A stretch of 64,000 nt of DNA from an uncultured bacterium (GTDB taxonomy: Bacteria > Patescibacteriota > Minisyncoccia > Phycocordibacterales > GCA-2401445), in NCBI GenBank assembly GCA_937952265.1, contig CALFYW010000055.1:58478-122477 (forward strand). The letters are read 5' to 3'. Shown piece by piece: positions 174 to 32,574 of this stretch (positions are counted from its first letter, which is position 1; every line of letters starts with the position of its first letter). A program made the position numbers and the translations under genes. The notes below the pieces were generated by a model, which saw only the letters and a list, made by a program, of their open reading frames with translations, searched no databases and was not told the DNA's origin.

Positions 174-1562
174 TTATAATACTGCCTCAACCGCGCGTAA
201 CGCGTCAACGAGTCCGAATCCGGTGGCGCCGTCTGGGCCTGGCGCCGCATTTCGCCCATGGGCATTGGTCCCGGTCGTAATATCCCGCGCCGTATATTTG
301 AGAAGATTCCGGATTTCGAGGGGCGTCAGGTCGGGATCGATTTCCTTTAACAATGCACAGACTCCGGCAACCATTGGGGAGGCTGCCGAGGTTCCGCTAA
401 AGGCGCCCCATCCGCCGCCTCGTTCCAATACAGCGTTCTGCTCAACGGGAAGAATGATGTAGTCCGCAGTTGGAGGAATACCGCAAAGTCCGCAAATATC
501 AGGGGTCTCACGGCCGGGAAACCACGTGGAAGCAAAACCGCTGGTGTACGGAGTGGCTGCGTATTGTAGTTGATCGTTGACGACAACACCACCGACAGAG
601 AGCACTTCCGGCATACTCCCGGGAAAGCCAAAATGTCCGTTGCCAGCGGAGAAGCAAACGGTGATCCCGCGGCTAACCGCATCCAAAACTGTGAGGTAGA
701 GCGGACGCAACCAGTTTGGCATCCCGGTGCCGGGCAGATCTACACTATACCCCCAACTGCACGTTATGACGCTCGGGCGCAGTTCAATCGCCGTTTTCAT
801 TGCGAGAGTTGGATTTCCCATTTTGAGGCCGATAAAGTTGATTCCTGGCGCTGTGGCCAATAAGTTTGCGCATTCACCGGTTCCATGGCCATGCGGATCT
901 GTTGCATGATCGAGGACGTCCGGGGCGGCAACCGAGAGAAAGTTGTATCCTTGATCAAGAAAGTATGGATGCTCGTAAAAACCGGTATCCGGCATCACCA
1001 CGCGGACCCCCTTTCCCGTGATACCACGACGATGGACGGCACTCGCGTTCATTATCTGCGCCACGTCATTTGGAACTCGAAGGCGGAACTTGTCCGTCCA
1101 ATAGGGTGGAATCGGTCGTTCATTGGCAAACAGTATGGGGTCATGCTGGATATATGCACGATCAATCAACTGATCGAGGCCGTCAACCGACGGCAACGCC
1201 CATGGGTCACTGCTTACCGGTGACTGCATGACATACTCTTTGGAAACTTTCGCCTGCTTCGGAGGACGGTGTTCACTGATTCTCGTTGAAAAGAATGATT
1301 CGAACTTTTTCCCTGGACACGTAGCCGAAATGCTAAACTCACCAACATGATGGACCGTAATCCCGTTGCGCTGCAGTTTTCTCGCGACCTCAACAACTTT
1401 ATCCTTCGGTGGACGATAGTCGTCGAGGTTAACCACTGTTGGAAAAGCATTCTCCGCGAATACCGATTTTTGTCCGGATTCCGGCGTTACGACGACTTCG
1501 AAGTTCACGCTTTCCCGGCGAATTGATGTCGTTGATTTGGATTGCTTGCGTTTTGCGGGCAT
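174..1562 (-). CDS. Subtilisin-like serine peptidase (S8 family), no signal peptide, with N-terminal propeptide-like region
   Basis: Catalytic motifs in S8 order: Asp in VVMPDTGF, His in DPHGHGTGEC, Ser in SGTSAASPMVAG. N-terminus MPAKRKQSK is charged and not hydrophobic, so no Sec signal. A region resembling an I9 propeptide precedes the catalytic domain. Confidence 0.8.
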   Translation of the reverse strand: MPAKRKQSKSTTSIRRESVNFEVVVTPESGQKSVFAENAFPTVVNLDDYRPPKDKVVEVARKLQRNGITVHHVGEFSISATCPGKKFESFFSTRISEHRPPKQAKVSKEYVMQSPVSSDPWALPSVDGLDQLIDRAYIQHDPILFANERPIPPYWTDKFRLRVPNDVAQIMNASAVHRRGITGKGVRVVMPDTGFYEHPYFLDQGYNFLSVAAPDVLDHATDPHGHGTGECANLLATAPGINFIGLKMGNPTLAMKTAIELRPSVITCSWGYSVDLPGTGMPNWLRPLYLTVLDAVSRGITVCFSAGNGHFGFPGSMPEVLSVGGVVVNDQLQYAATPYTSGFASTWFPGRETPDICGLCGIPPTADYIILPVEQNAVLERGGGWGAFSGTSAASPMVAGVCALLKEIDPDLTPLEIRNLLKYTARDITTGTNAHGRNAAPGPDGATGFGLVDALRAVEAVL

Positions 1563-3406: not shown

Positions 3407-5386
3407 ATGGCAGCAAAACCTTTAAAGTTTGGGAATTCACCGCGGACATTCGATGCTCGTCCGGATACCATTGATTTCCGCGATCGGATGTTTGTCCCGA
3501 CACTCGTTGCAGTTCCGCAAGCAATCGCGCTTGCGGCCTACAAAGAAGTAAAGTGCCCAGTTCTAAATCAGGGAACAGAGGGAGCGTGCACGGGCTTCGG
3601 GCTCGCCGCTGTCGTGAATTTTCTCCTCCGTCGCCGGAATCCTGCCGACACAACCGAGGTGAGTCAGAGAATGCTTTACGAAATGGCCAAGCGCTATGAT
3701 GAGTGGGAGGGTGAGGATTACAGTGGGTCGTCAGCGCGTGGCGCCATGAAAGGCTGGCACAAACACGGTGTATGCACGAGTGACCGCTGGCCCTATTCAC
3801 CCGGTCGGAATGACAGCGGATTGACACGGGAACGAAGCCTGGATGCCATAGACCGGCCGCTCGGCGCGTATTTCCGCGTAAACCATCGCGACATCGTCGC
3901 AATGCACGCCGCATTGACCGAGGTGGAGATTCTTTACGCAACGTCAATTGTCCACGAAGGCTGGAGTCGCGTCGCCGGGAACGGGGATATTCCGTTCGAT
4001 CCGAGATCCACGGGAGGCCATGCGTTTGCAATTGTGGCATTTGATCGTCAGGGATTCTGGATTCAGAACTCCTGGGGGGAGGGATGGGGATTGGATGGTT
4101 TCGCACGGATCAGCTACGATGATTGGTTGCAGAATGCAACCGACGTTTGGGTTGCGCGGCTCGGCGCACCAATCGAGCTGGACTCAGCGCGCTCAGTGTC
4201 GATCGGAACAAATGTCCACTCGGGAAACCCAGAAGCGTATACGGCATATGAACTGCGACCGCACATCGTTGCGATCGGAAATGATGGAAAGTTGCGGTCG
4301 CATGGAGCCTACGGAACCGACGAGAACGCCGTGAACGAGCTGTTTGGGCGCTCACTTCCCGAGATTACCGCAGCCTGGAAGAAGAAGCGAATCTTGCTTT
4401 ACGCGCATGGCGGCCTTGTCTCCGAGAAGTCTGCCCTGCAGACCCTCTCCGAGAATCGCGAAGCACTTCTCGAGAATGAGGTTTACCCCATATCCTTCAT
4501 TTGGAAGTCGGACTTTTGGACGACGCTCAAGAATATTCTGAACGACTCCTTGCGTCGTCGAAAGCCCGAGGGGTTACTTGACGCGACCAAGGATTTTCTG
4601 TTGGACCGATTAGACGACGCGCTCGAGCCAATTGCACGGCTTACGACGGGTAAGATGCAATGGGATGAGATGAAGGAAAACGCACTCGCCGCTACCGAGT
4701 CGGCCAACGGTGGTGCATCGATCCTGCTCAAACGATTGGAAACGCTTTTGAAAGCGGATCCAACGTGGGAGATTCACCTTGTTGGCCATAGCGCAGGATC
4801 GATCTTCCTTGCCCCAATCGTTCAATTGATCACCGGATCGGGAAGAATTGCGGCCGGTCTTTTGAAAAACCGTTCCGGGTTAGGCCGCAGCATCCAGAGT
4901 CTCAGTCTCTGGGCTCCGGCATGTACGATTGAGCTTTTCAACGCATATTATTCAAAACCACTCAAGGAACAGAAGATCCGCGACTTTGCGTTGTATACCC
5001 TAACGGATCGGGCAGAGCAGGACGATCACTGTGCGAGGATATATAACAAGTCGCTGCTGTATCTGGTGTCGAATGCGTTTGAAGATAAACCGAGGATCCC
5101 ATTGTTTCGCGATGGAATTCCCATACTCGGTATGGAGAAGTTCGTAAGTCAAGATGCTCGATTACAGCAATTGCTCAAACTGAAGCACTGTCGAATGATT
5201 CTCTCACCTGACGGGAGTGCAGCGAATGCAACCTCGCACGGGGGATTTGATGATGACCGAGCCACCAAGGAGTCAACGTTTGCGAGAATCCAGGGAAAAC
5301 GCAGTGTATCACTCGGTGGAATCGCGCATCTCGGAACGGCGAGTGTTCGCGAGCGGAGGCGGCGACTGAACGATGGAACGATTTAG
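3407..5386 (+). CDS. Fusion protein: N-terminal papain-like cysteine peptidase (C1 family) and C-terminal alpha/beta-hydrolase (serine esterase/lipase-like)
   Basis: Papain triad signatures: NQGTEGACTGFG (Cys), GGHAFAIVAFD (His), NSWGEGWG (Asn-Ser-Trp-Gly). The C-terminal half carries YAHGGLV and the nucleophile-elbow GHSAGS (GxSxG). No signal peptide. Confidence 0.65.
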   Translation: MAAKPLKFGNSPRTFDARPDTIDFRDRMFVPTLVAVPQAIALAAYKEVKCPVLNQGTEGACTGFGLAAVVNFLLRRRNPADTTEVSQRMLYEMAKRYDEWEGEDYSGSSARGAMKGWHKHGVCTSDRWPYSPGRNDSGLTRERSLDAIDRPLGAYFRVNHRDIVAMHAALTEVEILYATSIVHEGWSRVAGNGDIPFDPRSTGGHAFAIVAFDRQGFWIQNSWGEGWGLDGFARISYDDWLQNATDVWVARLGAPIELDSARSVSIGTNVHSGNPEAYTAYELRPHIVAIGNDGKLRSHGAYGTDENAVNELFGRSLPEITAAWKKKRILLYAHGGLVSEKSALQTLSENREALLENEVYPISFIWKSDFWTTLKNILNDSLRRRKPEGLLDATKDFLLDRLDDALEPIARLTTGKMQWDEMKENALAATESANGGASILLKRLETLLKADPTWEIHLVGHSAGSIFLAPIVQLITGSGRIAAGLLKNRSGLGRSIQSLSLWAPACTIELFNAYYSKPLKEQKIRDFALYTLTDRAEQDDHCARIYNKSLLYLVSNAFEDKPRIPLFRDGIPILGMEKFVSQDARLQQLLKLKHCRMILSPDGSAANATSHGGFDDDRATKESTFARIQGKRSVSLGGIAHLGTASVRERRRRLNDGTI

Positions 5387-6253: not shown

Positions 6254-6730
6254 ATGATGACCAAATCGAAGCTATATGTTGATGAGTATTTCGGCGGTAA
6301 AGAGAGTGTTCGCAATCGACTCTCCGACGCAATCCGCCAAGCACGGAAGCGCGAAGGATTCACGCAAGCTGCTCTCGATGAACTCTGTGGATTCGGTGAG
6401 GCCGAAAAAACGATTCAGATAGGGGATAAGCAATTCTCGTCGAAGGCTCGTGCACGCCTCAGTGATACAAAAGCTATCGAAGATAATCCGAACTTATTGA
6501 GAAGCCAGCACGTTAGTTTGGCAACGGCAGCTTTGGGTCTTAGGCTAACCGAAGTTTTACCATTGACTCTTTCCGGAGAACAAAGACGGACTGTTGCCCA
6601 AGAGATGCGTACAGGAAAGGGTGCCGGCGTGTTATATGGTTCAAGTGGACCTGACCCCGATGACATTCCTTTGGAATCTCAAGCGGAGCTTCATGTTCTC
6701 TTACGAGTGCTTTCGGAGATTGACGACTGA
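6254..6730 (+). CDS. XRE-family HTH-like regulator (partner of the ImmA/IrrE peptidase)
   Basis: HTH-like segment LSDAIRQARKREGFTQAALDELCGF. Lies immediately upstream of and co-directional with a HEXXH ImmA/IrrE-type gene. Confidence 0.45.
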   Translation: MMTKSKLYVDEYFGGKESVRNRLSDAIRQARKREGFTQAALDELCGFGEAEKTIQIGDKQFSSKARARLSDTKAIEDNPNLLRSQHVSLATAALGLRLTEVLPLTLSGEQRRTVAQEMRTGKGAGVLYGSSGPDPDDIPLESQAELHVLLRVLSEIDD

Positions 6731-6778
6731 GCAAAATCTGAGTTGACCCAGCGTCGACCAATTGAATAACATCGTTAG

Positions 6779-7351
6779 ATGTTACCACACCTCGACGACT
6801 ACCACTCATGTGCCAAGGAAGCCTGCGTTTACGCGCAGGCTTTTATTTCGAGCAGCTATTATACGAATAGTAAATTTGCCGAATTCGTAGAATGTGGTCC
6901 CGGCAGTCCGCATTTGCGCTATTGGCTACTTTCGATAATCAATTTTATTACAGACGTTACAGGAATAAGGATTCTCTTTGGCCCTTTACCGGTGCGCGGC
7001 TATGGCTCCTGGTTGTGTTTATCTGACGGTGATGATTATGCCGTTGTTGTCGACGAGTCACAATTGAATATCTGGGCGCAAGAATCTGGGATGCCGGCAA
7101 AGATCCAAGCAATTCGTTCAATCGTCCATGAATTAGGACATTTTATCTTGTCCCAAAAGCTTCCAGCTCGATCCGGTTCAACGTCAGATCCTGGAAGGAT
7201 TGGAGTTCCCATAAGATCGGTCCGTCCCATTGAAGAGGAAAAGGCTTGGATATTCGCATTCGTCTTCTTTGCAGTAATAAATGGTCACTATGCGCGAAGT
7301 TCGCGCGAGCTGCCCCGGAATCGCGATGACGGTTGCAAAGTATTTGTTTAA
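6779..7351 (+). CDS. ImmA/IrrE-family (COG2856-like) zinc metallopeptidase
   Basis: HEXXH motif in SIVHELGHFIL. Size of about 190 aa and pairing with an upstream XRE-HTH gene are typical of ImmA/IrrE anti-repressor proteases in mobile elements. Confidence 0.55.
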   Translation: MLPHLDDYHSCAKEACVYAQAFISSSYYTNSKFAEFVECGPGSPHLRYWLLSIINFITDVTGIRILFGPLPVRGYGSWLCLSDGDDYAVVVDESQLNIWAQESGMPAKIQAIRSIVHELGHFILSQKLPARSGSTSDPGRIGVPIRSVRPIEEEKAWIFAFVFFAVINGHYARSSRELPRNRDDGCKVFV

Positions 7352-7452: not shown

Positions 7453-8766
7453 TCAGTCAATCGGCTCATTGGGCGAAAGACTCCGTGCGCTGAAGGGAAG
7501 TGTCATCGCGCCGTCGATCAAGAGTTTGATGACCACCTCATAGTTTGGCAAATTGACAATATCCCGGATCACAAAACGCGACAGAAACTCCCGTTCAAGA
7601 ACCTCCGCGTCCGCGCTTCCAACACGAAAGCAAATTAGGGTTCCGACGTTTCCGAGAATGGCGTCCCTTATCGAGAGTTCAAGTTGCGAAAGGAATTGGT
7701 GAGCGAGAATGAGGTTCAAGCGGTATTTCCGCAACTCGGATAGAAGGGTCACCAAGCTTGGTGTGGTGAAGTTGTGGAATTCATCGAGATAGAGGTAGAA
7801 ATCTCGGCGACCCCACTCGGGTTTGTTTGAACGTGATAGTGCCGCCAAACCGAGGCTTGAGACCAGAAGCGCACCAAGGAGGGTCGAAGCATCCTCGCCA
7901 ATCTTCCCCTTGGCGACGTTGACCAGGAGGATCTTTCCCGTATCCATGGCGGTTCGCGGGTTGAATCCACTGCGAACTTGAGTAAGGATCCGGTTTACGA
8001 AAGGGTTGCCGAGGAACGCCCCCACCTTGTTCTGGACCGGTGCGATGGCCTCGGCCCGCAAGCGGGGCGGGTACCCTTCAAACTCACGGAGCCAAAATTG
8101 CCGGACCGGCTCGTTTCGGGAGCTCCGTGCCACGGCAATCCGGAATTCCTTGTCAGTGAGAAGCCGCAGGATATCCGCCATGGTTGCGTCCGGGTAGTCG
8201 AGGAGTGCATGGAACGAGTTGCGGAGGATGTGCTCCAGGCGCGGTCCCCAGGAATCAATCCAAAGCTTGTTGAATATCTCAAGAATTCCGGATGCAGCCA
8301 GGGCGCGTTGTTCCTGCGGGATTGACGCAAGGGGATTGAAGCCGAGCGGCTGCGGCGAACTAGCGTCGAAGTAGATGAGGTCGCCGGCGCGATCCTTCGG
8401 GATTTCCCGCAGGATTTCTTCGGTCAGATCGCCATGAGGATCGACGAGCGCAAGGCCCTCGCCGCCTTTAAGGTCCTGCCGGATGAATGTTTTGAGTAAC
8501 GTCGACTTTCCAGTTCCGGTCTTGCCAATGACGTAGCAGTGACTGCGGCGGTCACCTCGCCGGATGCCGACCAGGCGCCCACGATTCCGGAAGGTTGTCC
8601 GGGCAAAATATGTGACGTCATTGTCGCGCTTCTTCCACGGCAGCATTGATCCACGGTGACGGTTGTTTGCCGCCAGGCCAAGGGTGTCCGTGCTGCCGGC
8701 GATGACACGTGGCGCTCCCTTGTACTGAATCACCCCACTCTTACACTGGAGCGTGGAATAGGGCAT
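7453..8766 (-). CDS. TrwB/TraD/VirD4-like type IV coupling protein ATPase domain (soluble, no N-terminal TM segment)
   Basis: Walker A CYVIGKTGTGKSTLL is followed by ALVDPHGD (compare TrwB GATGTGKS...IVDPNGD). Walker B is LYLDEFHNF. Start set at the internal Met (MPYSTLQ, ATG at 8766). The longer ORF-track N-terminus (to 9390) is Arg/Ser/Ala-rich and overlaps the divergent SWIM gene. Confidence 0.55.
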   Translation of the reverse strand: MPYSTLQCKSGVIQYKGAPRVIAGSTDTLGLAANNRHRGSMLPWKKRDNDVTYFARTTFRNRGRLVGIRRGDRRSHCYVIGKTGTGKSTLLKTFIRQDLKGGEGLALVDPHGDLTEEILREIPKDRAGDLIYFDASSPQPLGFNPLASIPQEQRALAASGILEIFNKLWIDSWGPRLEHILRNSFHALLDYPDATMADILRLLTDKEFRIAVARSSRNEPVRQFWLREFEGYPPRLRAEAIAPVQNKVGAFLGNPFVNRILTQVRSGFNPRTAMDTGKILLVNVAKGKIGEDASTLLGALLVSSLGLAALSRSNKPEWGRRDFYLYLDEFHNFTTPSLVTLLSELRKYRLNLILAHQFLSQLELSIRDAILGNVGTLICFRVGSADAEVLEREFLSRFVIRDIVNLPNYEVVIKLLIDGAMTLPFSARSLSPNEPID

Positions 8767-8812
8767 CGCAGACGCGCTGCCACGGAAAACAACGTGATCC
8801 CTTACAAGCACC

Positions 8813-9661
8813 ATGAAAGCTGAAGAACTCATGCAACGACAAGCACGAGCGGCGGAGGAGCCGTTCGTCATCACGAAGACCGAGCACGGATACCGTGTCT
8901 GCTCGCCTCGCTCGCCGGGAAACCAATACCTTGTCACTGATACGGGCGACGAGGTCACCTGCACGTGTCCGGACTTTGAACGGAATGCGGCGGATCCGGA
9001 ATGGCGCTGCAAGCACATGATTGCGGTTGCGGCGCAGACCACGGGAGCGAAGGCGGAACAAGCGGGCGACGCATCGACGGCGCATGTGGCCGCCAACACC
9101 GGTCGCGAACCGCATCGCGGGAACGGGAACTCCACGGAATCACCCGCTCTCTCTCGAATCCTTATTAAACGAAGCGTGAGCCCGGATGGGCACATTGATT
9201 CCTTGTCGGTTGAATTCTCCGCGCCACTTAGAAGCCCTGCGGCAGAAGGGATTCGGGAAGAAGCCAAATCGATCCTTCGGATCCAATCTGACATCATCGC
9301 GGATTTCCTTGCCGCGAATCGACCTCGCCGGAGCGAGGAACGAGTGAACGGCGGAGGAGTGGGGCCCGTGGAAGCACGGCTCCTTAGCATTTCCGGAATG
9401 GAAGGCCGCTACGGTCGCCGCCTGTTTCTCAATGTGCTGGTGAACGGGCGCATTGCCAAGCTCTTCGGAAGCCACAAGCAACTCGCTGACGCCCTCGATA
9501 ACGCGGGCTTCGGCGAATTCGGGCAGCAGATTGCTGAAGGCGTTGAGCTCAACCTCCCCTGTCGTGTGGTCACCAAACCGACGCCGGATGGTCGATTCCT
9601 CAATGTCGAGAAGGTGTTGCCACCGAGTAACGGGTCTGGCACTTCCGGAGGTTCGCAATGA
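8813..9661 (+). CDS. SWIM zinc-finger domain protein
   Basis: CxCx(n)CxH signature: TCTCPDFERNAADPEWRCKHMIAV. Its stop overlaps the next gene's start (ATGA). Confidence 0.5.
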   Translation: MKAEELMQRQARAAEEPFVITKTEHGYRVCSPRSPGNQYLVTDTGDEVTCTCPDFERNAADPEWRCKHMIAVAAQTTGAKAEQAGDASTAHVAANTGREPHRGNGNSTESPALSRILIKRSVSPDGHIDSLSVEFSAPLRSPAAEGIREEAKSILRIQSDIIADFLAANRPRRSEERVNGGGVGPVEARLLSISGMEGRYGRRLFLNVLVNGRIAKLFGSHKQLADALDNAGFGEFGQQIAEGVELNLPCRVVTKPTPDGRFLNVEKVLPPSNGSGTSGGSQ

Positions 9662-10494
9662 TCGCAGCACTTCTGCGAGACCCGGATGAAGCACGGGTTG
9701 CCCGGCTTCCCCGGGCACTCTCGCATTCGCGGATCAATCGCTACCTCCTGTGCCCCGAGCAATACCGCCTCTACTATATCGAGCGGCTCCGGCCAAAGAT
9801 TCCGGCAGCCACACTCGTATTTGGGCAAATCATTCATCAGGCAATCGCCTCGTTCCTCACCCGTGAGCGTGATCCGGTCTCGGAATTCAACGAGAGCTGG
9901 AACTTGGTCAGGGGAATTCTGCTCAAATATCCGGAGCGGAGCTCCTGGGAGAAGCTCAACACCATTGGCGAGGCCCTGGTGACGAAGTTTCTATCAGAGG
10001 AACTTCCGCGCTTGGGCGTTATCCGAGCGGTCGAGACGCCGTTTGAGCTTGCGCTCTTAAATCTCGACATCCCGTTGGTGGGATTCATTGACCTCATTCG
10101 CGAGAAGAACGGTCACGTCGGCATCGTTGACTTCAAGACCGCTGCCTCCACCTACAAGCCGGGGGATGCGGCGCTCTCAGATCAATTGACCGCCTATCAA
10201 CTCGCGGTCCCGGACGCCACAGAGCTTGCGCTTTGTGTGCTGGTCAAGACGAAGAAACCAACGATCGAGTGGCACGTCACCACGCGAACGGATCAGCAGT
10301 TGGGGGAATACCTCGACAAGGCGGCGTATGTCGCCCAATCGATAGCCCGGTCCCGCTTCTATACCCGACCCGGAATGTGGTGCGCATGGTGCGATTACCG
10401 CCCCGTATGCGTCGGAGACCACGCCACCGCGCGGGAAACCCTTATCGAGCTCACCCCGAGCGAGGATGAGGGGAGAAATGGGACGCGTGTATGA
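9658..10494 (+). CDS. PD-(D/E)xK superfamily nuclease (RecB/Cas4-like, C-terminal Cys cluster)
   Basis: IVDFKT (D...K core motif) and C-terminal WCAWCDYRPVC are typical of Cas4/AddB-type nucleases. Translationally coupled to both flanking genes. Confidence 0.5.
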   Translation: MIAALLRDPDEARVARLPRALSHSRINRYLLCPEQYRLYYIERLRPKIPAATLVFGQIIHQAIASFLTRERDPVSEFNESWNLVRGILLKYPERSSWEKLNTIGEALVTKFLSEELPRLGVIRAVETPFELALLNLDIPLVGFIDLIREKNGHVGIVDFKTAASTYKPGDAALSDQLTAYQLAVPDATELALCVLVKTKKPTIEWHVTTRTDQQLGEYLDKAAYVAQSIARSRFYTRPGMWCAWCDYRPVCVGDHATARETLIELTPSEDEGRNGTRV

Positions 10495-10952
10495 GTATCG
10501 ATCCGTGCGAATACAAGGTCATTCGTTTGCGGGAGTGTCCGGTGCCCACCGAGCTCGCCCGGTGCGAAACCCCGGAGCACGCGGTCGCGTACTGGAACCT
10601 GCACATTGGCCCGCCCCCGTATTTCAATCCGGAATGCGAGTGCTTCGTCGTCCTCATGCTCAATTCACGCCATCGCGTCAAAGGGCATGCGCTGATATCA
10701 ATCGGCACCGTGGATACGCTCCTGGTCTCCGGACGGGAAGTATTCCGGACGGCCGTGATCGTGAGCGCCGCCGCGGTCGTGCTGATGCACAATCATCCGA
10801 GTGGCGACCCCACCCCGTCCGAGGCCGATATCAGAGCAACGCGTGACCTGGTTCACGGCGGGAAGGTCCTTCGCATTGAGGTGCTGGACCACGTCATCAT
10901 CGGTCGAGACAACCGAACATCGTTGCGCGAGCTCGGCTACCTCTACATGTAG
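10491..10952 (+). CDS. RadC-like JAB/MPN domain protein
   Basis: JAMM motif HNHPSGDPTPSEAD. Size about 150 aa. Confidence 0.8.
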   Translation: MSIDPCEYKVIRLRECPVPTELARCETPEHAVAYWNLHIGPPPYFNPECECFVVLMLNSRHRVKGHALISIGTVDTLLVSGREVFRTAVIVSAAAVVLMHNHPSGDPTPSEADIRATRDLVHGGKVLRIEVLDHVIIGRDNRTSLRELGYLYM

Positions 10953-11284
10953 CCCCCGCCCCGGTGTGAATAACTCACAGCCTCGTCTGAGCAATCAACG
11001 GGGCCTTTTTCTTGCGAACGACGGTGGGTGGGTGATTCACTGGTGCCTCCGTCACCGCAGGGATCGAAACCCTCCAAGCGAATGAGAAAGAGGTGGGCCA
11101 CCGCGTGGGGATAGCCGTGCGATCGGAAAAACGAAACCGCAGCGGCTTGATCGCCTGAAACCACGACCGCCAAGCGTCCCAACTCCTCCACGAATGCGAC
11201 AATGAAGAACGGGAAATCCCGATGCGTCGCGGAGATGGTAAACCGCAGATAATCAGGTAGGTCCGCAGGCGGGATCGTCTTCAT
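10943..11284 (-). CDS. Hypothetical protein
   Basis: ORF with a reasonable N-terminal composition but no recognisable motif. The C-terminal part is low-complexity. Confidence 0.2.
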   Translation of the reverse strand: MKTIPPADLPDYLRFTISATHRDFPFFIVAFVEELGRLAVVVSGDQAAAVSFFRSHGYPHAVAHLFLIRLEGFDPCGDGGTSESPTHRRSQEKGPVDCSDEAVSYSHRGGGYM

Positions 11285-11373
11285 GCCGCAACGTTATGGG
11301 AGTGAATCGTGCCGTGCCGAGAAAAACTCACCGACCTTCGTGCGACAATTATGAGCGCCGGCTCGTCGATTCC

Positions 11374-11958
11374 TCAATCGTTGGTCGCTTGACGCACGAT
11401 TTCAGCCAAATCGAGGTCCATGGCGTCGGTCAAGCGCAGCAACGTATCGAGGCTCGGGATTCGCAAACCTCGTTCGACGTAGCTTACCATCTGCTGAGAG
11501 AGCCCCGCGCGCTCCGCCAACGCGGTCATGGAAAGATTCTGAGCAATGCGCGAGGCTCGCAGCAGTCTGGCAACATTTGCGCAAACCCTTGCTCGGCGGT
11601 CATTTACTGGCACGGGCAAGATGTATGCGCCGTGCGAGTTGACAACACACCTAATAATAGTTAGGGTAAGAGCGCTATGTTTCTTCGCCGACTCGGACCC
11701 GACCCGCACGCCAATGGCGCATCCACCCCGGCACTTCAAAACTGCCCGGACATCTTTGAACTTGAGAACGGTGATTTCGCCATCATCGGTATCGACATGA
11801 CGGCGGACGGCAGGCCGCGCCTGCCCCCGAGTGCCGGCTGCGGTCCCGACGAGCGAATTGTCTGGATCCCGCGCCGCATTCTCGTCAACGCGAAGGGGGA
11901 TATTCCTGATTCGGTGTAGGAGCACGCTGCCATCCCCTTTCCTCCGACACCCACCCAA
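11374..11958 (-). CDS. XRE-family HTH protein (HTH at the C-terminal end of the ORF; true start uncertain, probably much shorter than the ORF)
   Basis: C-terminal 60 aa LRASRIAQNLSMTALAERAGLSQQMVSYVERGLRIPSLDTLLRLTDAMDLDLAEIV matches the XRE HTH pattern. No in-frame ATG lies just upstream of the domain, and the N-terminal extension is compositionally odd. Confidence 0.35.
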   Translation of the reverse strand: MGGCRRKGDGSVLLHRIRNIPLRVDENAARDPDNSLVGTAAGTRGQARPAVRRHVDTDDGEITVLKFKDVRAVLKCRGGCAIGVRVGSESAKKHSALTLTIIRCVVNSHGAYILPVPVNDRRARVCANVARLLRASRIAQNLSMTALAERAGLSQQMVSYVERGLRIPSLDTLLRLTDAMDLDLAEIVRQATND

Positions 11959-11969
11959 GGGTATACTGG

Positions 11970-12434
11970 GTGGGTATTGGGTTGTGGCTTGCGGAGCACT
12001 GGTTTTCCCTCCTTCAAAGCGCCGGAATTATCGGCAGCCTCATTTTCACTGGCGCCTCACTCCGGATTGATGCACGTGCCCGTCGAACCAGCAATCTGAT
12101 CGCCATCAGCCGCCAACATCGCGATATCTGGACGGAAATCCTCCGACGCCCTGACCTGCTTCGCATCCTTTCTCCACGAGGACGTGTTGAAACCGCGAAA
12201 ATCTCCGAATCCGAAGAAGCATTCGTCACGCTCCTCATCCACCATCTGGCAAGCGCCTATGACGGTATTCGGTTCGGATTGATCACCGAACTTGATGGGC
12301 TGCAACGCGATGTCGCGCAGTTCTTCGCGCTCCCCATCCCTCGCAAGGTATGGGAGCGGATCCGCCCGTATCAGAATATGGAATTCGTGCGCTTCATGGA
12401 TCACACGATCGGGCCACCCACCGAACCGCGGTAG
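11970..12434 (+). CDS. Hypothetical membrane protein
   Basis: N-terminal hydrophobic helix and plausible composition. Conflicts with an antisense ORF at 12057..12515, which is judged less likely. Confidence 0.25.
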   Translation: MGIGLWLAEHWFSLLQSAGIIGSLIFTGASLRIDARARRTSNLIAISRQHRDIWTEILRRPDLLRILSPRGRVETAKISESEEAFVTLLIHHLASAYDGIRFGLITELDGLQRDVAQFFALPIPRKVWERIRPYQNMEFVRFMDHTIGPPTEPR

Positions 12435-12539
12435 CGCGATCGCCGCGCTACCGGATCTCCGCAAATCGTAGCGCTCGGCTCCATAAAAAAGGCCCTCTTG
12501 ATGATCTTTCAGCAAAAGGGCTCCTTGGCTCGGAATGAA

Positions 12540-13448
12540 TCATTCCGAGAATTCGTTCACTGCCATGAGGCGACCGGTCGGATTTGCTTCCACCTCTCCC
12601 TCGTCACCGCCGACTGCGGCGAATTGGTCGAGCAGGCGGTGGATCACCCGCGTCCGTGCTGGTAAGCGCCACAGATCGCCTTTGATGGTCTCGGTGGCTG
12701 CATTGAACAATCGCCATGCGGTTTTACCACACTGGACAAACTCCGGATGCCGCGGCTCACGCCATTCCCGGATTACGCGAGGAATGTCCGAGACATTCAA
12801 CGCACCGGCGTCCCACAGGCGGACCACCAGGTCGTGAACGTCGTGGTCGGAAAGCGCGGTTTGCCGATAGCGCTCAAACGTTTCCGACTGCGCGGCAAAG
12901 CGCTCCGGAAGGCTCACCACCGTCTCGCTGATGATCCAGGACAAATCGCGCAACAAGTTCGCGGTATGCTTCCGTGCGAACGTGACCGCTGACCCTTGAA
13001 AGGACAGATTGTCACACACGAACACGGTTGCGCCGATGCAAAGCCCTGCGGAAACCGATTTGTCGTAGGAATTGCGCAACCCCAGGACGCATCCATAGTC
13101 AGAGCCATTCGCTCCGGGCAACTCGACCTGGAGAATCCCGAATAGCCGGTTACCGTCGCGGCCCAGCGCCAACCGCTCGTCGCGAATCGTGATCCCCTCA
13201 ACCGCAAGCTGCTTTTCGATCCGCACAATCAAAGATTCGTACGGGAGGGGAACATAGGTCCGCGTTGCGGTCGGAATCGGCACCCCAAACACTTCCTCGC
13301 GCGAGGCGAGCTCGGCACCGCAGTGGAGAACGAGCCCCTTCATTTCGATCCTCCTTTGGCCAGAATCCTGGCAACCCAGTGGGTGAACATACGTGTCAAC
13401 TTCATCATCATCCTCCTTATCAATTGGTTGTGAACAGCGTGAATCCAT
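12540..13448 (-). CDS. Hypothetical protein, possibly DUF932-like (family found on conjugative/integrative elements); alternative start 13343
   Basis: About 300 aa with good composition and an LRNSYDKS motif. The DUF932 family assignment is from memory only and was not verified. Confidence 0.35.
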   Translation of the reverse strand: MDSRCSQPIDKEDDDEVDTYVHPLGCQDSGQRRIEMKGLVLHCGAELASREEVFGVPIPTATRTYVPLPYESLIVRIEKQLAVEGITIRDERLALGRDGNRLFGILQVELPGANGSDYGCVLGLRNSYDKSVSAGLCIGATVFVCDNLSFQGSAVTFARKHTANLLRDLSWIISETVVSLPERFAAQSETFERYRQTALSDHDVHDLVVRLWDAGALNVSDIPRVIREWREPRHPEFVQCGKTAWRLFNAATETIKGDLWRLPARTRVIHRLLDQFAAVGGDEGEVEANPTGRLMAVNEFSE

Positions 13449-14265: not shown

Positions 14266-17200
14266 ATGAAATTAAATATCCCTTTCACGCTCTTCTTCGT
14301 GATCGCGCTCGCTCCGCTGATCACGGCACAAGGGCGACGCACTGCTCCTGAAACCCTGATTTCAAGGGGGCAATACGAAATTCGTGAACGCGGGCCACAT
14401 CACAACAAAGTCGGTCGTGAGATCGTTGTGCGTGATCAGTCCGGTGAGATCGTGACCCGCGAGCAATCCTATGTGGAACTCGCCACCGGAATGAACTTTC
14501 TGGATGAGGGGGAGTGGAAGCCGGCGGATCCCACCATTGAGCTTTTCGAAGGCGGAGCAATTGCGCGAAACCTCCAGCAGAAAATAATCTTCTCACCAAA
14601 CATCTTGGACGAGGATGGGACGATTGACTTTCAAACTCCGGACGGACAGCGCCTTCGCGCTGCACCGCTCGCCCTCGCCTATTTCGACCCGGTGACAGGC
14701 CAGGACGCGATTATTGCGGTTGCGAAGGACTCAGTGGGTGAAGTGCATGGCGAAAGCAGGGTCGTGTATCCTGATGCGTTCGACGGTGTTGAGGCAGACG
14801 TGATCTACGACCTCCGTATCTCCGGCTTCAGCCAGGACGTTATTCTGCGCGAGCAAATTCCGCCAGCCGAGGATTTCGGCCTAAACTCGGAGTTCGCCCG
14901 ACTCGAGATTCTGACTGAATTTCTGGAGGCACCGCGACCTCAAAAAGAGGAGCGTATCCTCTGGAGAGTTGAGGATCCCGTGCTCCGTGGAATCATGGCG
15001 ACCCCGGATTTTGTCGATGAGGAATTGGTTTTTGGACAAACGCGCTTTGGTCCTGGTCGAGCATTCTCAAACAACCAAGCAGGTCTTGATTCGCCGGTAG
15101 ATGAGGCCGCGACGCCGGTAGGAAAGCGATGGGTCGAAGAGGATGGCCGAATGATCCTCTTCGAATCTGTCGATTTTCAATCCATCTTGCCAATGTTGGA
15201 TCAACTGCCTGCTCGTCAGCAGGCGCGAATTGACTTCAACGAGATTGACCGACCGGAACTGCTGGCCTCATCGAGCCCTGATCGCACCGTTCCTCGGCGC
15301 CCGGACCTCAGTGAATCCGAATTCCGGGGAATACAAATCGCCGACATCTCCCGTCACCGCCCCGGGGTAATTCTCGATTATACGACCATCGATGCAACGC
15401 AGACGGACTACACCTTCAAGGGCGACACCACGTATTATATCAAGGGTTCAATTCACTTGTACGGAACGACCACGCTCGAGGGCGGCACCGTAATCAAATT
15501 CGATAAATACAACTCTGGAAGTTCATACTATACTCGACTGTACGTAAACGACGGATTTGTCTGTAATACAGACTTTTACCGCCCAGCAATTGTCACTGCA
15601 CGTGATGACGATACCGTCGGTGAAATCCTTTCGGAAAGCGACGGAACGGTTGATGCGCCAGGGCATTATGGATATTACGGATTTCATTTCAACACTCCAA
15701 CCAGTGATATCTCGCTCCACCACGTTCATTTTCGAAACACACTGGTTGCGTGCCTGTTCTACAAGGCTTCAACAAACACCCACTCGTTAAAACATGTTAC
15801 GTTCACTCAATGCCGCTACGGGATATATGCGAACGATACTGATGTTGAGGTTGGGAATATCCTAATCGACGACGCTTACACAACGGCATTCTGGGGACGG
15901 GATACGGCAACGATTGATGCGGAGCACGTAACTGTTCATGACGCCGCGCAGATTTTTTATGACCAAGACGCCAACTCCACGTTAAACCTTACAAATTCAC
16001 TTTTGGTTGATGTCACGACAACCACCCACACCGGTTCAGAGACGAACGTTGAAATTATAGCGAGCGCAGCAGGATTGTTTCAATCCGTGGGTGTCGGCGA
16101 CTTTTATCTTGCTCCCGGAAGCCCATATCGCGATGCCGGAACCACAAGCATCGATGCCACGCTCGCATCGGAACTGCGAACGTTAACGACGTATCCACCG
16201 GTGGAACTCGAAGGGGACATTACGGAAGACACGACACTCTACCCACACGTCGAACGAGACATGGGAATTCCTGACTTGGGATACCATTACACCCCAATTG
16301 ACTATGCGCTCTTCGTTGTCGTAAAAGACTCAACCCTTACTATCAATCCTGGAACTGTGATCGTTCCGCACAACTACGGGTCCATTGAACTCCAAGACGG
16401 TAGTCACCTCGAAGCCGTGGGAACAGTCTCACAACCCATTCAATTCGCTCGCTACTACGCCTCTCAGGAGCAACCGGCGGAATGGGTAAACCATGGATAT
16501 CCAGAGCGGTCAATCATTTCCCGAAACGACGGAAGTAACACACCAACCGCGAATATTCGATTCGCGAACTTCAACGGAATCAGTGGCGGTGGATACACGT
16601 TCTACCTTGACAACTCATGGTGGAAAATCCAAACGCTGGATTTGGTAGATTGCCAGATTTATGGAAACGAATCGCCATTTTCAGGCGGCCAAAGTCCCTA
16701 CTCAAACATAACCATCAAGAACTGCCTGTTCGTTCGGGCCTTAGCCAAGTTCACTCATTGGGGTGTCCGTGACGTTTACAACAACCTATTCTCGGGCGGA
16801 ACCACCCACGTTGAACGGTGGAGCGCCGGCGCGGGAACGTGGACCTTCAAGGATAATTCATTTCACAGCACCGCACTCACAGACGTCTACGGTGGAACAA
16901 GCAACAGCTACAATGGTTATCTGGGCGCAAGTCAAGGCACCTTAAGCAGTTCCTCAGGGAACGACGAAACTGCAACGACGTTCACCTACGATTCCGGGCA
17001 ACTGGGTCGGTTCTATCAGAATAGCACTGATCTCCTTGACGAGGGTAGCCAAGCAGCAGGAGCCGCGGGTCTGTTTCACTTCACTACGGAATCGGACAAT
17101 AGCAAGGATACGGGCACGGTGGACATCGGATACCACTACGTCGCGGTGGACAGCACAAGCGGCGAACCTGACGACACAGACGGCGACGGAATACCCGATT

Positions 17201-17319
17201 ATCTTGAGGATGCCGATGGCGACGGCAACCACGACAGCGGAACGGAGACGGATTGGGAAGAATCTGAAAACGGAACAACGGGGACGACAGGCCTGTTGGT
17301 TTTCACGATCCTGGAGTAG
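14266..17319 (+). CDS. Large secreted repeat protein (Sec signal peptide; probable beta-helix-like repeats; acidic Ca-binding-like D-x-D-G-D repeats at the C-terminus)
   Basis: Signal peptide MKLNIPFTLFFVIALAPLITAQG. Length 1017 aa. C-terminal DTDGDGIPDYLEDADGDGNHD resembles thrombospondin-type-3/calcium-binding repeats. Confidence 0.55.
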   Translation: MKLNIPFTLFFVIALAPLITAQGRRTAPETLISRGQYEIRERGPHHNKVGREIVVRDQSGEIVTREQSYVELATGMNFLDEGEWKPADPTIELFEGGAIARNLQQKIIFSPNILDEDGTIDFQTPDGQRLRAAPLALAYFDPVTGQDAIIAVAKDSVGEVHGESRVVYPDAFDGVEADVIYDLRISGFSQDVILREQIPPAEDFGLNSEFARLEILTEFLEAPRPQKEERILWRVEDPVLRGIMATPDFVDEELVFGQTRFGPGRAFSNNQAGLDSPVDEAATPVGKRWVEEDGRMILFESVDFQSILPMLDQLPARQQARIDFNEIDRPELLASSSPDRTVPRRPDLSESEFRGIQIADISRHRPGVILDYTTIDATQTDYTFKGDTTYYIKGSIHLYGTTTLEGGTVIKFDKYNSGSSYYTRLYVNDGFVCNTDFYRPAIVTARDDDTVGEILSESDGTVDAPGHYGYYGFHFNTPTSDISLHHVHFRNTLVACLFYKASTNTHSLKHVTFTQCRYGIYANDTDVEVGNILIDDAYTTAFWGRDTATIDAEHVTVHDAAQIFYDQDANSTLNLTNSLLVDVTTTTHTGSETNVEIIASAAGLFQSVGVGDFYLAPGSPYRDAGTTSIDATLASELRTLTTYPPVELEGDITEDTTLYPHVERDMGIPDLGYHYTPIDYALFVVVKDSTLTINPGTVIVPHNYGSIELQDGSHLEAVGTVSQPIQFARYYASQEQPAEWVNHGYPERSIISRNDGSNTPTANIRFANFNGISGGGYTFYLDNSWWKIQTLDLVDCQIYGNESPFSGGQSPYSNITIKNCLFVRALAKFTHWGVRDVYNNLFSGGTTHVERWSAGAGTWTFKDNSFHSTALTDVYGGTSNSYNGYLGASQGTLSSSSGNDETATTFTYDSGQLGRFYQNSTDLLDEGSQAAGAAGLFHFTTESDNSKDTGTVDIGYHYVAVDSTSGEPDDTDGDGIPDYLEDADGDGNHDSGTETDWEESENGTTGTTGLLVFTILE

Positions 17320-17362
17320 GCATCGGGCTGAGGCCGTAAACCGGCTAAAACGATTCAATAAT

Positions 17363-29640: not shown

Positions 29641-30141
29641 TCACGCCTCTAAACGATTGAACGTCACAGCAAGCGAAACGGCATCAAACGCGTTCATCCT
29701 ATAATCCTCACCCATCCATGGTCGCCGCCTTGGTGGAACATACGGGGCAAGTTCTGGGAAGCGATGTCCGAGTGCGAGCGCAATTTCACGCTTCGTTCCC
29801 CGCGGCCCGACAATGGCGGTCTGAATGTCGGCGCGAGAAAACTTAGCGGTCCGAACTCCACTCGATGCGGCGAGCCGGCGAAGCTCTCCAATTAAGAGCT
29901 GCACCCGGAGACACCTGCGGGAACCGTCTCCGGCAAAATCCTCGAGCACCAGGATTTCTGGGGAATAGAATTTGATCAATCTCCGGACCTTGCGACAAGT
30001 CTGTGCGGTCTTATCCTCCGGAGTTCCATTTATCCCCCAATCAACCAACGTTTTCGGTCCCTCAAGGACCGCGTAGCCGAACCCTCGACAACCAGGATCA
30101 ATCGCGAGAACACGTGAATTGTGCATTTTCACCCGCCTCAT
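29641..30141 (-). CDS. RuvC-like (Holliday-junction resolvase fold) nuclease
   Basis: N-terminal LAIDPGCRGFGYAVLEG parallels RuvC GIDPGSRVTGYGV. An acidic ILVLED motif follows. Confidence 0.45.
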   Translation of the reverse strand: MRRVKMHNSRVLAIDPGCRGFGYAVLEGPKTLVDWGINGTPEDKTAQTCRKVRRLIKFYSPEILVLEDFAGDGSRRCLRVQLLIGELRRLAASSGVRTAKFSRADIQTAIVGPRGTKREIALALGHRFPELAPYVPPRRRPWMGEDYRMNAFDAVSLAVTFNRLEA

Positions 30142-30497: not shown

Positions 30498-30791
30498 GGA
30501 GATTTCGAATGTTAGGGAAGTCGAAGTGGCTTCAATTCCATTGTAAACCGGTGCTCGGTCCGACAAAGGAGTGAATTCTTGCGGAATCACGCAAGATCGG
30601 ATCACCACAACCGCGATCAGGACCTCAGCAAGCGGTCTTGGGTGGACTTGGGGGACTTTGGGGATGTCACCACGGACACGACGACTGGCGCCGGCCCGTA
30701 TTTTCGGGCTGTTTGCCCCGCGTGACTTCGCTCAACGCACCCGGAAGAACGTCCCCAATGTCCCCAACGTCCACCCGTGTTCTCCACGTGC

Positions 30792-32501: not shown

Positions 32502-32574
32502 GATAGTTGACTCGAAACTCTCATGTACGTTACGCTGTACACCTCTCGGGGTTTGAATTCCTTTCTCGTTATCT

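Follow-up and report, generated by a model that had tools for sequence, protein, structure and literature searches.

In the window, a 64,000-nucleotide stretch of DNA from an uncultured member of the Patescibacteriota, a small ATPase of the TrwB/VirD4 class is encoded divergently from a pair of genes for a SWIM zinc-finger protein and a Cas4-like nuclease. This three-gene arrangement is found again in dozens of unrelated genomes, far beyond chance, and is the conserved unit inside an integrative, probably mobilizable element. The ATPase is the hallmark gene of a widespread and so far undescribed family of integrated mobile elements; as about 70% of the ATPase loci do without the SWIM-nuclease pair, that pair is an optional module of the family.

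The ATPase and its divergent intergenic region

The genes at this end of the element, with the region from which they diverge, are:

7453-8646, minus strand: T4CP-like ATPase, 397 aa, a soluble TrwB/VirD4-like P-loop ATPase
8647-8812: divergent intergenic region, common to the ATPase and the SWIM operon
8813-9661, plus strand: SWIM zinc-finger protein, 282 aa
9658-10494, plus strand: Cas4/AddB-type PD-(D/E)xK nuclease, 278 aa, with four Cys
10491-10952, plus strand: RadC-like JAB-only protein, 153 aa
12540-13448, minus strand: DUF932 protein (Pfam DUF932, 9e-8)

The first four genes had been delimited in a preliminary description, and the open reading frames bear it out: ATGA overlaps are present at both the SWIM/nuclease and the nuclease/RadC junctions, and GKTGTGKS, VDPHGD, the SWIM CxC...CxH and the nuclease C-terminal CxxCxxxxxC are all found in the translations. 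The exception is the divergent gap, given there as 46 bp, which presupposes an ATPase start at ATG 8766. Most likely the start is ATG 8646, giving 397 aa; from the upstream ATG 8766 the protein would have 437 aa, and in the public gene call it has 453 aa. More than 100 homologues have 390-400 aa, their alignment beginning at Met 8646, and in most relatives the stretch equivalent to 8647-8766 is non-coding spacer of 136-160 bp with a conserved DNA motif, which makes 166 bp the most likely size of the gap.

The motif, a dyad of ~43 nt (AAGG..TTGCCGgaa.CGGCAA..CTTG; 54 loci aligned), has a degenerate copy in the spacer of the window at 8679-8721, read on the minus strand. Of its proposed pairs 79% form, with weak covariation; alifold predicted no structure for it and Rfam gave no match. 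A search with nhmmer placed it in 10/22 of the loci that have SWIM and in 2/55 of those that do not, and further copies adjoin serine-recombinase genes in three loci (L034, L035 and L043). It looks like an operator of the divergent control region.

The description of the ATPase as soluble and T4CP-like holds up. Three Pfam models match above their gathering cut-offs (TrwB_AAD_bind, 36.7 bits against 20.5; TraG-D_C, 29.4 against 22; T4SS-DNA_transf, 21.6 against 20.1), GKTGTGKS and DEF are invariant among 24 homologues, and a profile search of the PDB returns TrwB (5.5e-9) and also DotL. In the AF2 model (pLDDT 77, pTM 0.79), Walker A and Walker B are separated by an all-alpha insertion, with helices at about residues 111-236; Foldseek places DotL (1.4e-9), TrwB (3.4e-9, TM about 0.6) and Cagbeta (TM 0.69) foremost, with HerA (1.8e-8) slightly behind. 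The Walker NTPase domain models, together with the all-alpha insertion and the closest fold, are those of a type IV coupling protein. A membrane anchor was not found: a scan of the N-terminal 250 residues gave no hydrophobic 19-mer, the protein has no TM segment, and homologues of 390-400 aa are too short to house an N-terminal TM anchor. The equivalog and subfamily cut-offs of the NCBIfam TraD/VirD4 models are not reached (best SXT_TraD, 44.9 bits against 366). At present, databases label the protein merely ‘type IV secretion system DNA-binding domain protein’.

Other families were considered. Assignment to HerA/FtsK or another family, which the preliminary description had named as the finding that would undo its own, led to no reclassification, with the caveat that the HerA fold margin is small. 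As a HerA helicase, the ATPase matches DUF87 with 25.1 bits on residues 75-114 only, PADLOC HerA matches cover ~40 residues, and there is no NurA, SIR2 or other effector partner gene. As the mad8 component of MADS, an eight-gene operon that includes a methyltransferase, kinase and specificity subunit, it matches by the profile alone (1.7e-20), with no methylase or kinase adjacent; because that PADLOC profile was built from HHpred/PDB alignments, the match is generic.

The ATPase family comprises more than 7,600 protein clusters that are 50-65% identical across many phyla (its members occur in Acidobacteriota, Verrucomicrobiota, Planctomycetota, Patescibacteria, Proteobacteria and Clostridia), an identity much above that usual for coupling proteins. 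Since it is nearly missing from viral contigs (4 matches) and plasmids (7 records), it resides in chromosomally integrated elements.

The SWIM-nuclease pair and its companions

The SWIM protein has three parts. Residues 1-84 form the SWIM domain (Pfam SWIM, 20.4 bits against a cut-off of 19.6), in which the CxCxnCxH residues C50, C52, C66 and H68 of the zinc finger are invariant among 30 sequences; residues 115-169 form a beta-hairpin and a long helix, in which the best-conserved motif, KRSVSPDGRIDSLSVEF, lies; a putative OB-fold spans residues 186-270. This OB domain has similarities to the SSB-like plasmid protein PrgE, to phage SSBs, and to DUF669 and LEF-3. At the level of sequence, no homology to known annealases or SSBs was detectable, and PADLOC gave no match.

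The nuclease had been described as Cas4/RecB-like with a C-terminal Cys cluster, and so it proves (Pfam PDDEXK_1, 106 bits, 3e-30; Cas_Cas4, 8e-5). Its catalytic and Cys residues are invariant (C32, D145, D158-x-K160, Q176...Y180, C242, C245 and C251), giving the D...(D/E)xK and QxxxY motifs and the one N-terminal and three C-terminal Cys of the Cas4/RecB family; the four Cys form a putative 4Fe-4S cluster. CRISPR-associated Cas4 proper was rejected (TIGR00372, 31.5 bits where the cut-off is 65; cas genes are absent from the neighbourhood), as was a MobC (Replic_Relax) relaxase (hhalign probability 0.4%; no PF13814 match).

One way to understand the pair is as a phage-style recombination module, an SSB or annealase with a 5'-3' exonuclease like lambda Red or the Sak4-SSB-exonuclease sets, serving to replicate, recombine or repair the element once it is excised; the ATPase would then be its motor or an independent replication or segregation ATPase. 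The nuclease matches PHROG ‘exonuclease’ families at 2e-21, the OB domain is similar to DUF669, LEF-3 and phage SSBs, and the two genes are translationally coupled as exo/annealase pairs are; the RuvC-like resolvase and P-loop NTPase of the element, described below, also suggest DNA-replication or recombination functions. We regard this account as unlikely.

The third gene of the operon stands apart. The RadC-like protein (Pfam RadC, 122 bits, 1.5e-35; metal motif HNHPSGDPTPS, HxHxxxxxxxD) is the JAB half only, aligning to positions 109-211 of the 212 in the model for full-length RadC; as full-length RadC (UPF0758) it was rejected, with 122.1 bits below the cut-off of 180 and the N-terminal helix-hairpin-helix region missing. 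The preliminary description had taken SWIM, nuclease and JAB proteins together for a functional unit and had proposed a neighbourhood survey of the trio as a block. In that survey the block divides: in SWIM-centred loci the nuclease lies directly 3' of SWIM wherever this could be assessed (48/48), and RadC directly 3' of the nuclease in only 6/41. RadC is found anywhere in 13/29 loci of at least 8 kb, otherwise varying in position or absent. It is a facultative companion, outside the conserved core. The suggested profile searches (TrwB_AAD_bind/T4SS-DNA_transf, PDDEXK_1 and RadC) all gave matches.

The ATPase is what belongs with the pair instead: it lies divergently upstream of SWIM in 36/39 SWIM-centred loci. 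Seen from the ATPase, the linkage is looser; the pair is present in only ~30% of ATPase-centred loci, and in those without it the place of the pair is taken by DUF932, RadC, an orphan methylase, a MobC relaxase or a larger ATPase paralogue. DUF932 homologues occur in 22/86 ATPase loci (best match 4.9e-113, in the Verrucomicrobiota locus L021). With RadC, orphan methylases and ParB_N proteins, DUF932 makes up a set of leading-region-type companion genes. The mobile-element setting with leading-region or anti-restriction-type neighbours, also part of the earlier description, is thus upheld by DUF932 in the window and by an orphan methylase, DUF2958 or DUF3768 in relatives.

It could be supposed that there is no functional unit here, the genes being merely neighbours inherited jointly in one element lineage. 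The SWIM-linked ATPases do cluster for the most part in a single broad region of the ATPase tree, such that the recurrence could be largely vertical co-inheritance. However, order, strand, ~140-bp spacing, SWIM/nuclease overlap and spacer motif are all kept at 42-65% protein identity across phyla while all the surrounding genes vary, and a few cases (L025, L032/L038 and L066) are phylogenetically scattered; we consider this supposition very unlikely.

The integrated element

Only two blocks of the window are common to relatives, 7453-13448 and 29641-34290. The second is an integration block at 29.6-34.3 kb that adjoins a tRNA gene:

29641-30141, minus strand: RuvC-like resolvase (weak RuvC matches in Pfam, NCBIfam and PHROG)
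30138-30608, minus strand: HTH (XRE/RstR-like) regulator (HTH_31, 1.8e-4; RstR-like, 5e-5)
30792-32129, minus strand: P-loop NTPase, 445 aa (GSGKT ... IIDEAD)
32575-34290, plus strand: large serine recombinase (integrase; Pfam Resolvase, Recombinase and Zn_ribbon_recom)
34248-34324, minus strand: tRNA-Asn(GTT) (ARAGORN)

The order RuvC-like, HTH, P-loop protein, serine recombinase is found again in L048, L055, L058, L059 and L062; in L042, L048 and L055, the series runs from the recombinase through to the RuvC-like gene and then to the ATPase. The RuvC-like gene has homologues in 19-20 loci, where this order is kept, with the HTH regulator next to it. The P-loop NTPase has no Pfam, NCBIfam, PHROG or PDB match; in a 14-sequence alignment its mean column identity is 52%, and it is always beside the serine recombinase. 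The latter is XisF/Ccr-like in NCBIfam and has homologues in 30 related loci; its 3' end overlaps tRNA-Asn by 43 nt. At ~34 kb the GC content drops from 0.50-0.60 to about 0.44. With a recombinase at the border, abutting tRNA-Asn at a GC break, the region has the form of a serine-integrase element, and tRNA-Asn, at the right edge of the high-GC island, is the likely integration site. A left border was sought and not found. Between the two ends lies cargo that includes an RHS toxin and a helicase.

No relaxase, T4SS gene or oriT was found in the window, and no VirB4-type gene in any +/-10 kb neighbourhood examined. Of the 55 related loci that extend for 5 kb or more on each side, 4 have Replic_Relax within 6 kb of the ATPase. 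In L011, L025, L067 and L079 a MobC-type relaxase (Replic_Relax) occurs with a second T4CP-like ATPase, and this neighbour is a different, larger paralogue of the small ATPase; the small ATPase may therefore not be the coupling protein.

A second perspective supposes that ATPase, SWIM-OB protein and nuclease are self-contained defence or counter-defence cargo, in which a hexameric translocase of HerA/T4CP type feeds foreign DNA to the nuclease, as in HerA-NurA and HerA-SIR2. Defence genes do abound in the neighbourhoods (OLD-like, AAA_13, TIR, type I RM, PLD-helicase and toxin-antitoxin); the three genes are tightly linked and appear in differing carrier contexts; HerA nearly equals the T4CPs as a fold match, and mad8 is the best PADLOC match of the ATPase. 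But PADLOC and the other searches gave no matching system, as the preliminary description had also recognised none; the SWIM protein is unmatched, the mad8 match is generic and the other MADS genes are absent. Moreover, most ATPase loci are without the pair, the ATPase tracks the integrase block and not the nuclease, its very high conservation is unusual for immune genes, and the slot is otherwise occupied by establishment or anti-restriction-type genes. On balance, a defence role is improbable.

Proposed roles and known systems

The reading we prefer, held tentatively and with a little less than even confidence, takes the region as one end of an integrated mobile element with a TrwB/VirD4-class ATPase and a SWIM-OB and nuclease pair. 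The serine recombinase would excise the element first; the ATPase, as a cytoplasmic, hexameric, DNA-dependent ATPase, would engage the element DNA and deliver or translocate it, most plausibly coupled to a helper conjugation pore, as in IME- and CloDF13-type elements with a coupling protein of their own; binding of the single-stranded intermediate would fall to the SWIM-OB protein, and the trimming or resection of its ends, in aid of re-circularisation or establishment, to the nuclease. RadC and DUF932 would then be interchangeable accessories of establishment or anti-restriction type. Several observations weigh against this preferred reading: coupling proteins typically have a membrane anchor, which this ATPase lacks, relaxase, T4SS and oriT are missing, the HerA fold margin is small, the triad occurs also in non-recombinase contexts, and the cross-phylum identity is unusual for coupling proteins.

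The contexts in question are a multi-copy, transposon-like rve+AAA unit with MazE, and a CPR (Berkelbacteria) contig on which the triad stands alone beside ABC-transporter and housekeeping genes. A further, rather doubtful prospect is that the ATPase, SWIM-OB protein and 4Fe-4S nuclease make up an undescribed, self-sufficient three-protein DNA-processing machine (ring translocase, ssDNA-binding factor and end-processing nuclease), carried by several unrelated kinds of mobile element in at least 8 phyla for a purpose other than classical T4SS coupling. If so, that purpose might lie in immunity or counter-immunity of a new kind, or in some step of DNA transfer or establishment that needs no pore.

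The ATPase apparently marks a family of integrated elements that ranks among the more widespread of those still unannotated in environmental bacteria, in phyla in which conjugation and element mobility have barely been studied; a coupling-type ATPase with neither anchor nor nearby secretion system prompts one to ask by what route such elements move. The invariant SWIM-OB/Cas4-like pair makes a small, clean and testable module; the ATPase is a practical marker for finding and delimiting islands that carry toxins and defence genes.

Among known systems, the T4CPs TrwB (R388), VirD4, DotL and Cagbeta share the Pfam domains and alpha insertion of the ATPase and are its best sequence and fold matches; the ATPase differs in its missing anchor, its length of only 397 aa, the lack of an adjacent relaxase or T4SS, scores far below every NCBIfam TraD/VirD4 equivalog cut-off and unusual conservation across phyla. 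HerA-NurA and HerA-SIR2 (Nezha) likewise pair an ATPase of the FtsK-HerA superfamily with a nuclease, HerA being a close second in the fold search; here, however, the DUF87 match is to the P-loop region only, NurA and SIR2 are absent, ATPase and nuclease are encoded on opposite strands, and the ATPase is often present where the nuclease is not. CP4-57 and similar enterobacterial integrative elements carry clusters of DUF932, anti-restriction and RadC genes. Like these, the window combines DUF932 with a JAB-only RadC on one integrated element; it differs in integrase type and backbone and has no ArdB/KlcA-type gene or CbtA/CbeA pair.

Streptococcal IMEs of class 8 have a serine integrase, their own VirD4 and a MobC (Replic_Relax) relaxase of PD-(D/E)xK fold (PMC5357655), and some plasmids encode a T4CP of their own together with a MobC relaxase (PMC5704250). 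These IMEs and the CloDF13-type mobilizable plasmids (PMC5357655, PMC5704250, PMC3424549) likewise combine, compactly, a T4CP-like ATPase with a nuclease of the PD-(D/E)xK superfamily, the integrative ones with a serine recombinase, and some relatives of the present element hold Replic_Relax and a T4CP-like gene. By contrast, the window has no Replic_Relax, its nuclease is of Cas4/AddB type, and its small ATPase is distinct from the MobC-adjacent paralogue. The phage modules (lambda Exo/Beta; Sak4 with its cognate SSB, DUF669, and exonuclease) have an OB-fold SSB-like protein, a translationally coupled RecB-family exonuclease and an adjacent RecA-fold ATPase (PMC5928155), an arrangement to which the putative OB domain, the coupled nuclease and the neighbouring ATPase of the locus would correspond; the locus adds a SWIM finger, its ATPase is of another family, and its module is not found in phages. 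From plasmids, the SSB-like protein PrgE of pCF10 offers a likeness to the OB domain of the SWIM protein.

Genes of the cluster and their linkage

Four genes lie at the positions that the preliminary description assigned to them, as the open reading frames (ORFs), Pfam assignments each above the curated cut-off and the ATGA overlaps at both the SWIM/nuclease and the nuclease/RadC junctions bear out:

8646 (probable start) to 7453 (end of frame), minus strand: ATPase; Pfam TrwB_AAD_bind (36.7 bits), TraG-D_C (29.4) and T4SS-DNA_transf (21.6)
8813–9661, plus strand: SWIM protein, 282 aa; Pfam SWIM (20.4 bits)
9658–10494, plus strand: PD-(D/E)xK nuclease, 278 aa; Pfam PDDEXK_1 (106 bits)
10491–10952, plus strand: RadC/JAB protein, 153 aa; Pfam RadC (122 bits)

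The gap of 46 bp once described between the divergent genes presupposes that the ATPase starts at the ATG at 8766, and has to be revised. Homologues are 390–400 aa long, with the alignment beginning at the Met codon at 8646; in relatives, the counterpart of 8647–8766 is a non-coding spacer of 136–160 bp that contains a conserved DNA motif. These comparisons argue that the ATPase most likely has 397 aa and faces a divergent spacer of 166 bp. At 453 aa, the gene call in the public record runs into the start of SWIM and probably extends too far.

The spacer motif is an element of ~43 nt, aligned across 54 loci as AAGGcggg.a..TTGCCGgaa.CGGCAA......g.CTTG; in SWIM-bearing loci its end lies a constant ~26 nt upstream of the ATPase start codon, and the window's own copy (8679–8721, minus strand) is degenerate. 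Searches with nhmmer detect it in 10 of 22 SWIM-bearing loci vs 2 of 55 others; three loci have a copy beside the serine recombinase gene, ~5.6 kb (L034), ~8.7 kb (L035) and ~9.8 kb (L043) from the ATPase start. The motif is dyad-symmetric; of the pairs proposed for it, 79% form. A structured RNA was considered and rejected: RNAalifold predicts none, Rfam has no match and covariation is weak. The simplest reading is a shared, putative operator or promoter element; scans of the region for sigma-70 promoters and terminators gave background levels.

ORFs were called in 80 ATPase-centered genome loci and 80 SWIM-centered metagenome loci and classed by iterative profile searches. Strict criteria place the nuclease gene immediately after SWIM, in the same orientation, in 45 of 48 assessable SWIM-centered loci; ORF-extension artefacts account for the remaining three, making the association effectively 48/48. 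The ATPase is divergent, upstream and adjacent in 31 of 39 SWIM-centered loci; in five more it is within 4 kb, one gene intervening, and three lack it. RadC directly follows the nuclease in just 6/41; it occurs somewhere in 13 of the 29 SWIM-centered loci that span 8 kb or more, frequently past the ATPase on the opposite flank. Seen from the ATPase, in the 55 loci with at least 5 kb on each side, the neighbors are the nuclease (18), SWIM (15), a larger paralogous ATPase (15), DUF932 (14), a serine recombinase (13), RadC (9), an orphan N6/N4 methylase (8) and Replic_Relax (4).

On these counts SWIM and nuclease form an obligate unit, which rarely occurs apart from the ATPase; the ATPase itself is often found without them, and RadC is a facultative neighbor. 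The unit formerly proposed, a trio of SWIM, nuclease and JAB genes, must therefore be redrawn as a divergent ATPase and SWIM–nuclease triad with RadC optional; the other parts of that interpretation, the ATPase call and the mobile-element context, stand. Order, strand, spacing and overlap are fixed across SWIM-linked loci, while all other neighbors change. Most SWIM-linked ATPases fall in one broad group of a neighbor-joining tree, with a few scattered exceptions, which suggests that much of the recurrence is lineage inheritance, kept over large divergence.

The proteins and their distribution

The ATPase had been described as a soluble relative of type IV coupling proteins (T4CPs), and Pfam, profile and structural comparisons agree. 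With a profile of 24 homologues, TrwB (5.5e-9) and DotL are the only meaningful solved relatives. In the AlphaFold model (pLDDT 77, pTM 0.79), an all-alpha segment of about residues 111–236 is inserted into the RecA-like core between Walker A (G41–S48) and Walker B (D288–E289). The Foldseek ranking is headed by DotL, TrwB (TM ~0.6) and Cagbeta (TM as high as 0.69). No membrane-spanning segment was found in the protein, and it reaches none of the NCBIfam TraD/VirD4 cut-offs. By sequence and predicted fold, then, it is T4CP-like and lacks a membrane anchor. HerA follows close behind in the Foldseek ranking, and a perspective in which ATPase and nuclease work as a HerA–NurA-like machine of defense or counter-defense draws on that proximity; we consider it unlikely.

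The strongest PADLOC match, mad8, raised membership of the MADS system, which was rejected: none of the other MADS genes is there, and the mad8 profile is a generic one. These profiles derive from HHpred alignments to PDB, so the match is uninformative.

The SWIM family is small, with 860 members at E≤1e-3 and 202 at E≤1e-30 in a library of 1.84 billion representatives, and constant in architecture (260–310 aa, no fusions). Its AlphaFold model divides into three: an N-terminal SWIM domain, predicted with confidence, in which C50, C52, C66 and H68 are invariant; a beta-hairpin and long helix bearing the most conserved motif, KRSVSPDGRIDSLSVEF; and a C-terminal barrel of five strands, likewise predicted with confidence, which has helices between strands 3 and 4, the OB topology. 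The nuclease, to judge from its invariant residues (C32, D145, D158-x-K160, Q176...Y180, C242, C245 and C251), carries all the Cas4/AddB hallmarks; it does not reach the Cas4 equivalog cut-off, and no cas gene is nearby. The idea that it is itself a MobC-type relaxase was discarded, profile comparison with Replic_Relax showing no similarity.

Phage exonuclease PHROGs match the nuclease. Together with the OB barrel, this match is what would commend another account, a phage-style recombination module of single-strand binding protein (SSB) and exonuclease. We rate this account, too, as improbable. Viral contigs gave only 4 ATPase matches among 2.9 million; a phage or satellite origin was rejected on that scarcity, the PHROG matches being generic or of unknown function. 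A plasmid origin fares similarly: the ATPase occurs in 7 of 72,556 PLSDB records, at 44% identity at best, and the SWIM protein has no match there.

Elsewhere the ATPase family is very large, with more than 7,600 clusters (90% identity) at E<1e-5; in a collection of one genome per species, at least 583 stretches matched by pattern carry a gene for a relative. Identity of 50–65% extends across Acidobacteriota, Verrucomicrobiota, Planctomycetota, Patescibacteria, Alpha-, Beta- and Gammaproteobacteria, Clostridia, Nitrospirota and others. Since it is nearly absent from viral contigs and plasmids, the family belongs to elements integrated in the chromosomes of mostly uncultured bacteria. Cultured carriers do exist, among them Bradyrhizobium sp. 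DASA03120 (locus L057) and a Sulfitobacter with plasmid NZ_CP081110. Searchable literature yielded no description of the module or element family, and nothing relevant on this gene combination.

The element in the window and its relatives

Just two blocks of the window have counterparts in related loci:

7453–13448, block A: ATPase, SWIM protein, nuclease, RadC and DUF932 (the last at 12540–13448, minus strand)
29641–34290, block B: RuvC-like resolvase, HTH regulator, 445-aa P-loop protein, small ORF and large serine recombinase

Three relatives (L042, L048, L055) have the compact order serine recombinase, P-loop protein, HTH, RuvC-like and then ATPase; in the window, 16 kb of cargo separates the blocks (a 1,017-aa protein, RHS toxin, HEAT protein and ResIII helicase). 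At 14266–24549 this cargo includes the secreted-looking 1,017-aa protein, a 2,192-aa RHS-repeat toxin and the HEAT-repeat protein; RHS proteins also occur in six related loci. The 445-aa P-loop NTPase (30792–32129, minus strand; GSGKT ... IIDEAD) is conserved and always beside the serine recombinase. Searches of Pfam, NCBIfam, PHROGs and PDB gave nothing for it, and it may serve the element as replication protein or helicase.

The 3' 43 nt of the serine recombinase ORF (from 32575) overlap a tRNA-Asn gene on the opposite strand (to 34324), at a junction where GC drops from 0.50–0.60 to 0.44. This run of the ORF into the tRNA at a GC break suggests that part of tRNA-Asn comes from the element end. 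No left border was found: no tRNA-derived or other long direct repeat matches the other end, and a Pkinase-WD40 gene flanks both the window element and one relative, at just 37% identity. GC is 0.50–0.60 over 1–34300 (the island) vs 0.44 over 34300–64000 (core genes), and is still ~0.58 in the 10 kb left of the window (11.4–21.4 kb of the wider locus, L088); either the island exceeds 45 kb or the genome is compositionally patchy.

Beyond the end of the ATPase, an HTH protein followed by a 190-aa protein with an HELGH motif (6254–7351, plus strand) resembles an ImmR/ImmA-type repressor/anti-repressor pair; neither protein has a Pfam match or is conserved in relatives. Farther out are a papain-like C1 peptidase fused to a large unknown C-terminal domain (3407–5386, plus strand), a subtilase (174–1562, minus strand) and, just outside the window, an Endonuclease_NS gene (L088, 12567–13475); these may be variable secreted-enzyme cargo. 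One relative (L178) has an S1-P1 nuclease at the equivalent position.

Defense and toxin cargo of the relatives includes RHS, OLD-like, AAA_13, NACHT, type I RM, TIR and toxin-antitoxin genes. ParB_N proteins occur as well; large ones with an HTH (~600–650 aa) are encoded in seven related loci, including L020, L023, L039 and L055. Genes of this type are common on conjugative elements.

Two further ATPases accompany the family. A second T4CP-like ATPase of 520–750 aa adjoins a MobC-type relaxase (Replic_Relax) in L011, L025, L067 and L079. In 19 of 80 loci (L013, L015, L016, L018, L022, L027, L036, L038, L041, L053, L075 and L078 among them) a soluble T4CP-like paralogue of 860–1,090 aa comes directly after the small ATPase, 1.3–6.5 kb downstream of it. 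It matches phrog_5156 and joins an N-terminal domain of unknown type (250–400 aa) to the ATPase domain; the one ~1,040-aa representative scanned (L018) ends in an excisionase-type HTH_17, not seen in the shorter L060 protein. The window has neither Replic_Relax with a second ATPase nor the 860–1,090-aa paralogue.

The triad also travels in other company. In L090 and L091 (~4.8–13.1 kb) it forms part of a unit of ~8 kb that also encodes an rve transposase, an AAA_22 ATPase and a MazE antitoxin. Two different places hold identical copies of this unit, whose SWIM protein is on at least 20 contigs; the unit looks like an IS21/Tn-like carrier. In a CPR genome the triad stands alone.

Possible role of the triad

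The association of ATPase with SWIM–nuclease is widespread, clean and testable. What the genes encode, their folds, their linkage and the mobile-element setting are established; whatever goes further we infer. The reading we tentatively prefer, at somewhat short of an even chance, is an integrative and probably mobilizable element. The soluble ATPase would handle element DNA after excision; the SWIM-OB/nuclease pair would bind and trim a single-stranded or linear intermediate; RadC and DUF932 would be interchangeable, establishment-type accessories.

Several observations weigh against a part in conjugation: the ATPase has no anchor; neither a relaxase nor a T4SS gene was found in the window, and no VirB4 or other T4SS gene in any neighborhood of the relatives examined; where MobC is present, a different paralogue adjoins it; and the triad is also carried by the multi-copy rve+AAA transposon-like unit and alone in the CPR genome. 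These observations keep both the HerA–NurA-like machine and the SSB/exonuclease module alive as less likely readings.

CloDF13 is an example of a mobilizable plasmid with its own VirD4 coupling protein and MobC relaxase. The mobilizable-element reading is favored because its logic is closest to that of mobilizable elements bringing their own coupling protein and a relaxase of PD-(D/E)xK fold: mobilizable plasmids in which a self-encoded VirD4 coupling protein goes with a MobC relaxase (PMC5704250), and streptococcal class-8 integrative mobilizable elements, which combine serine integrase, MobC and VirD4 (PMC5357655), Replic_Relax being the MobC family, with the PD-(D/E)xK fold (PMC5357655, PMC3424549).
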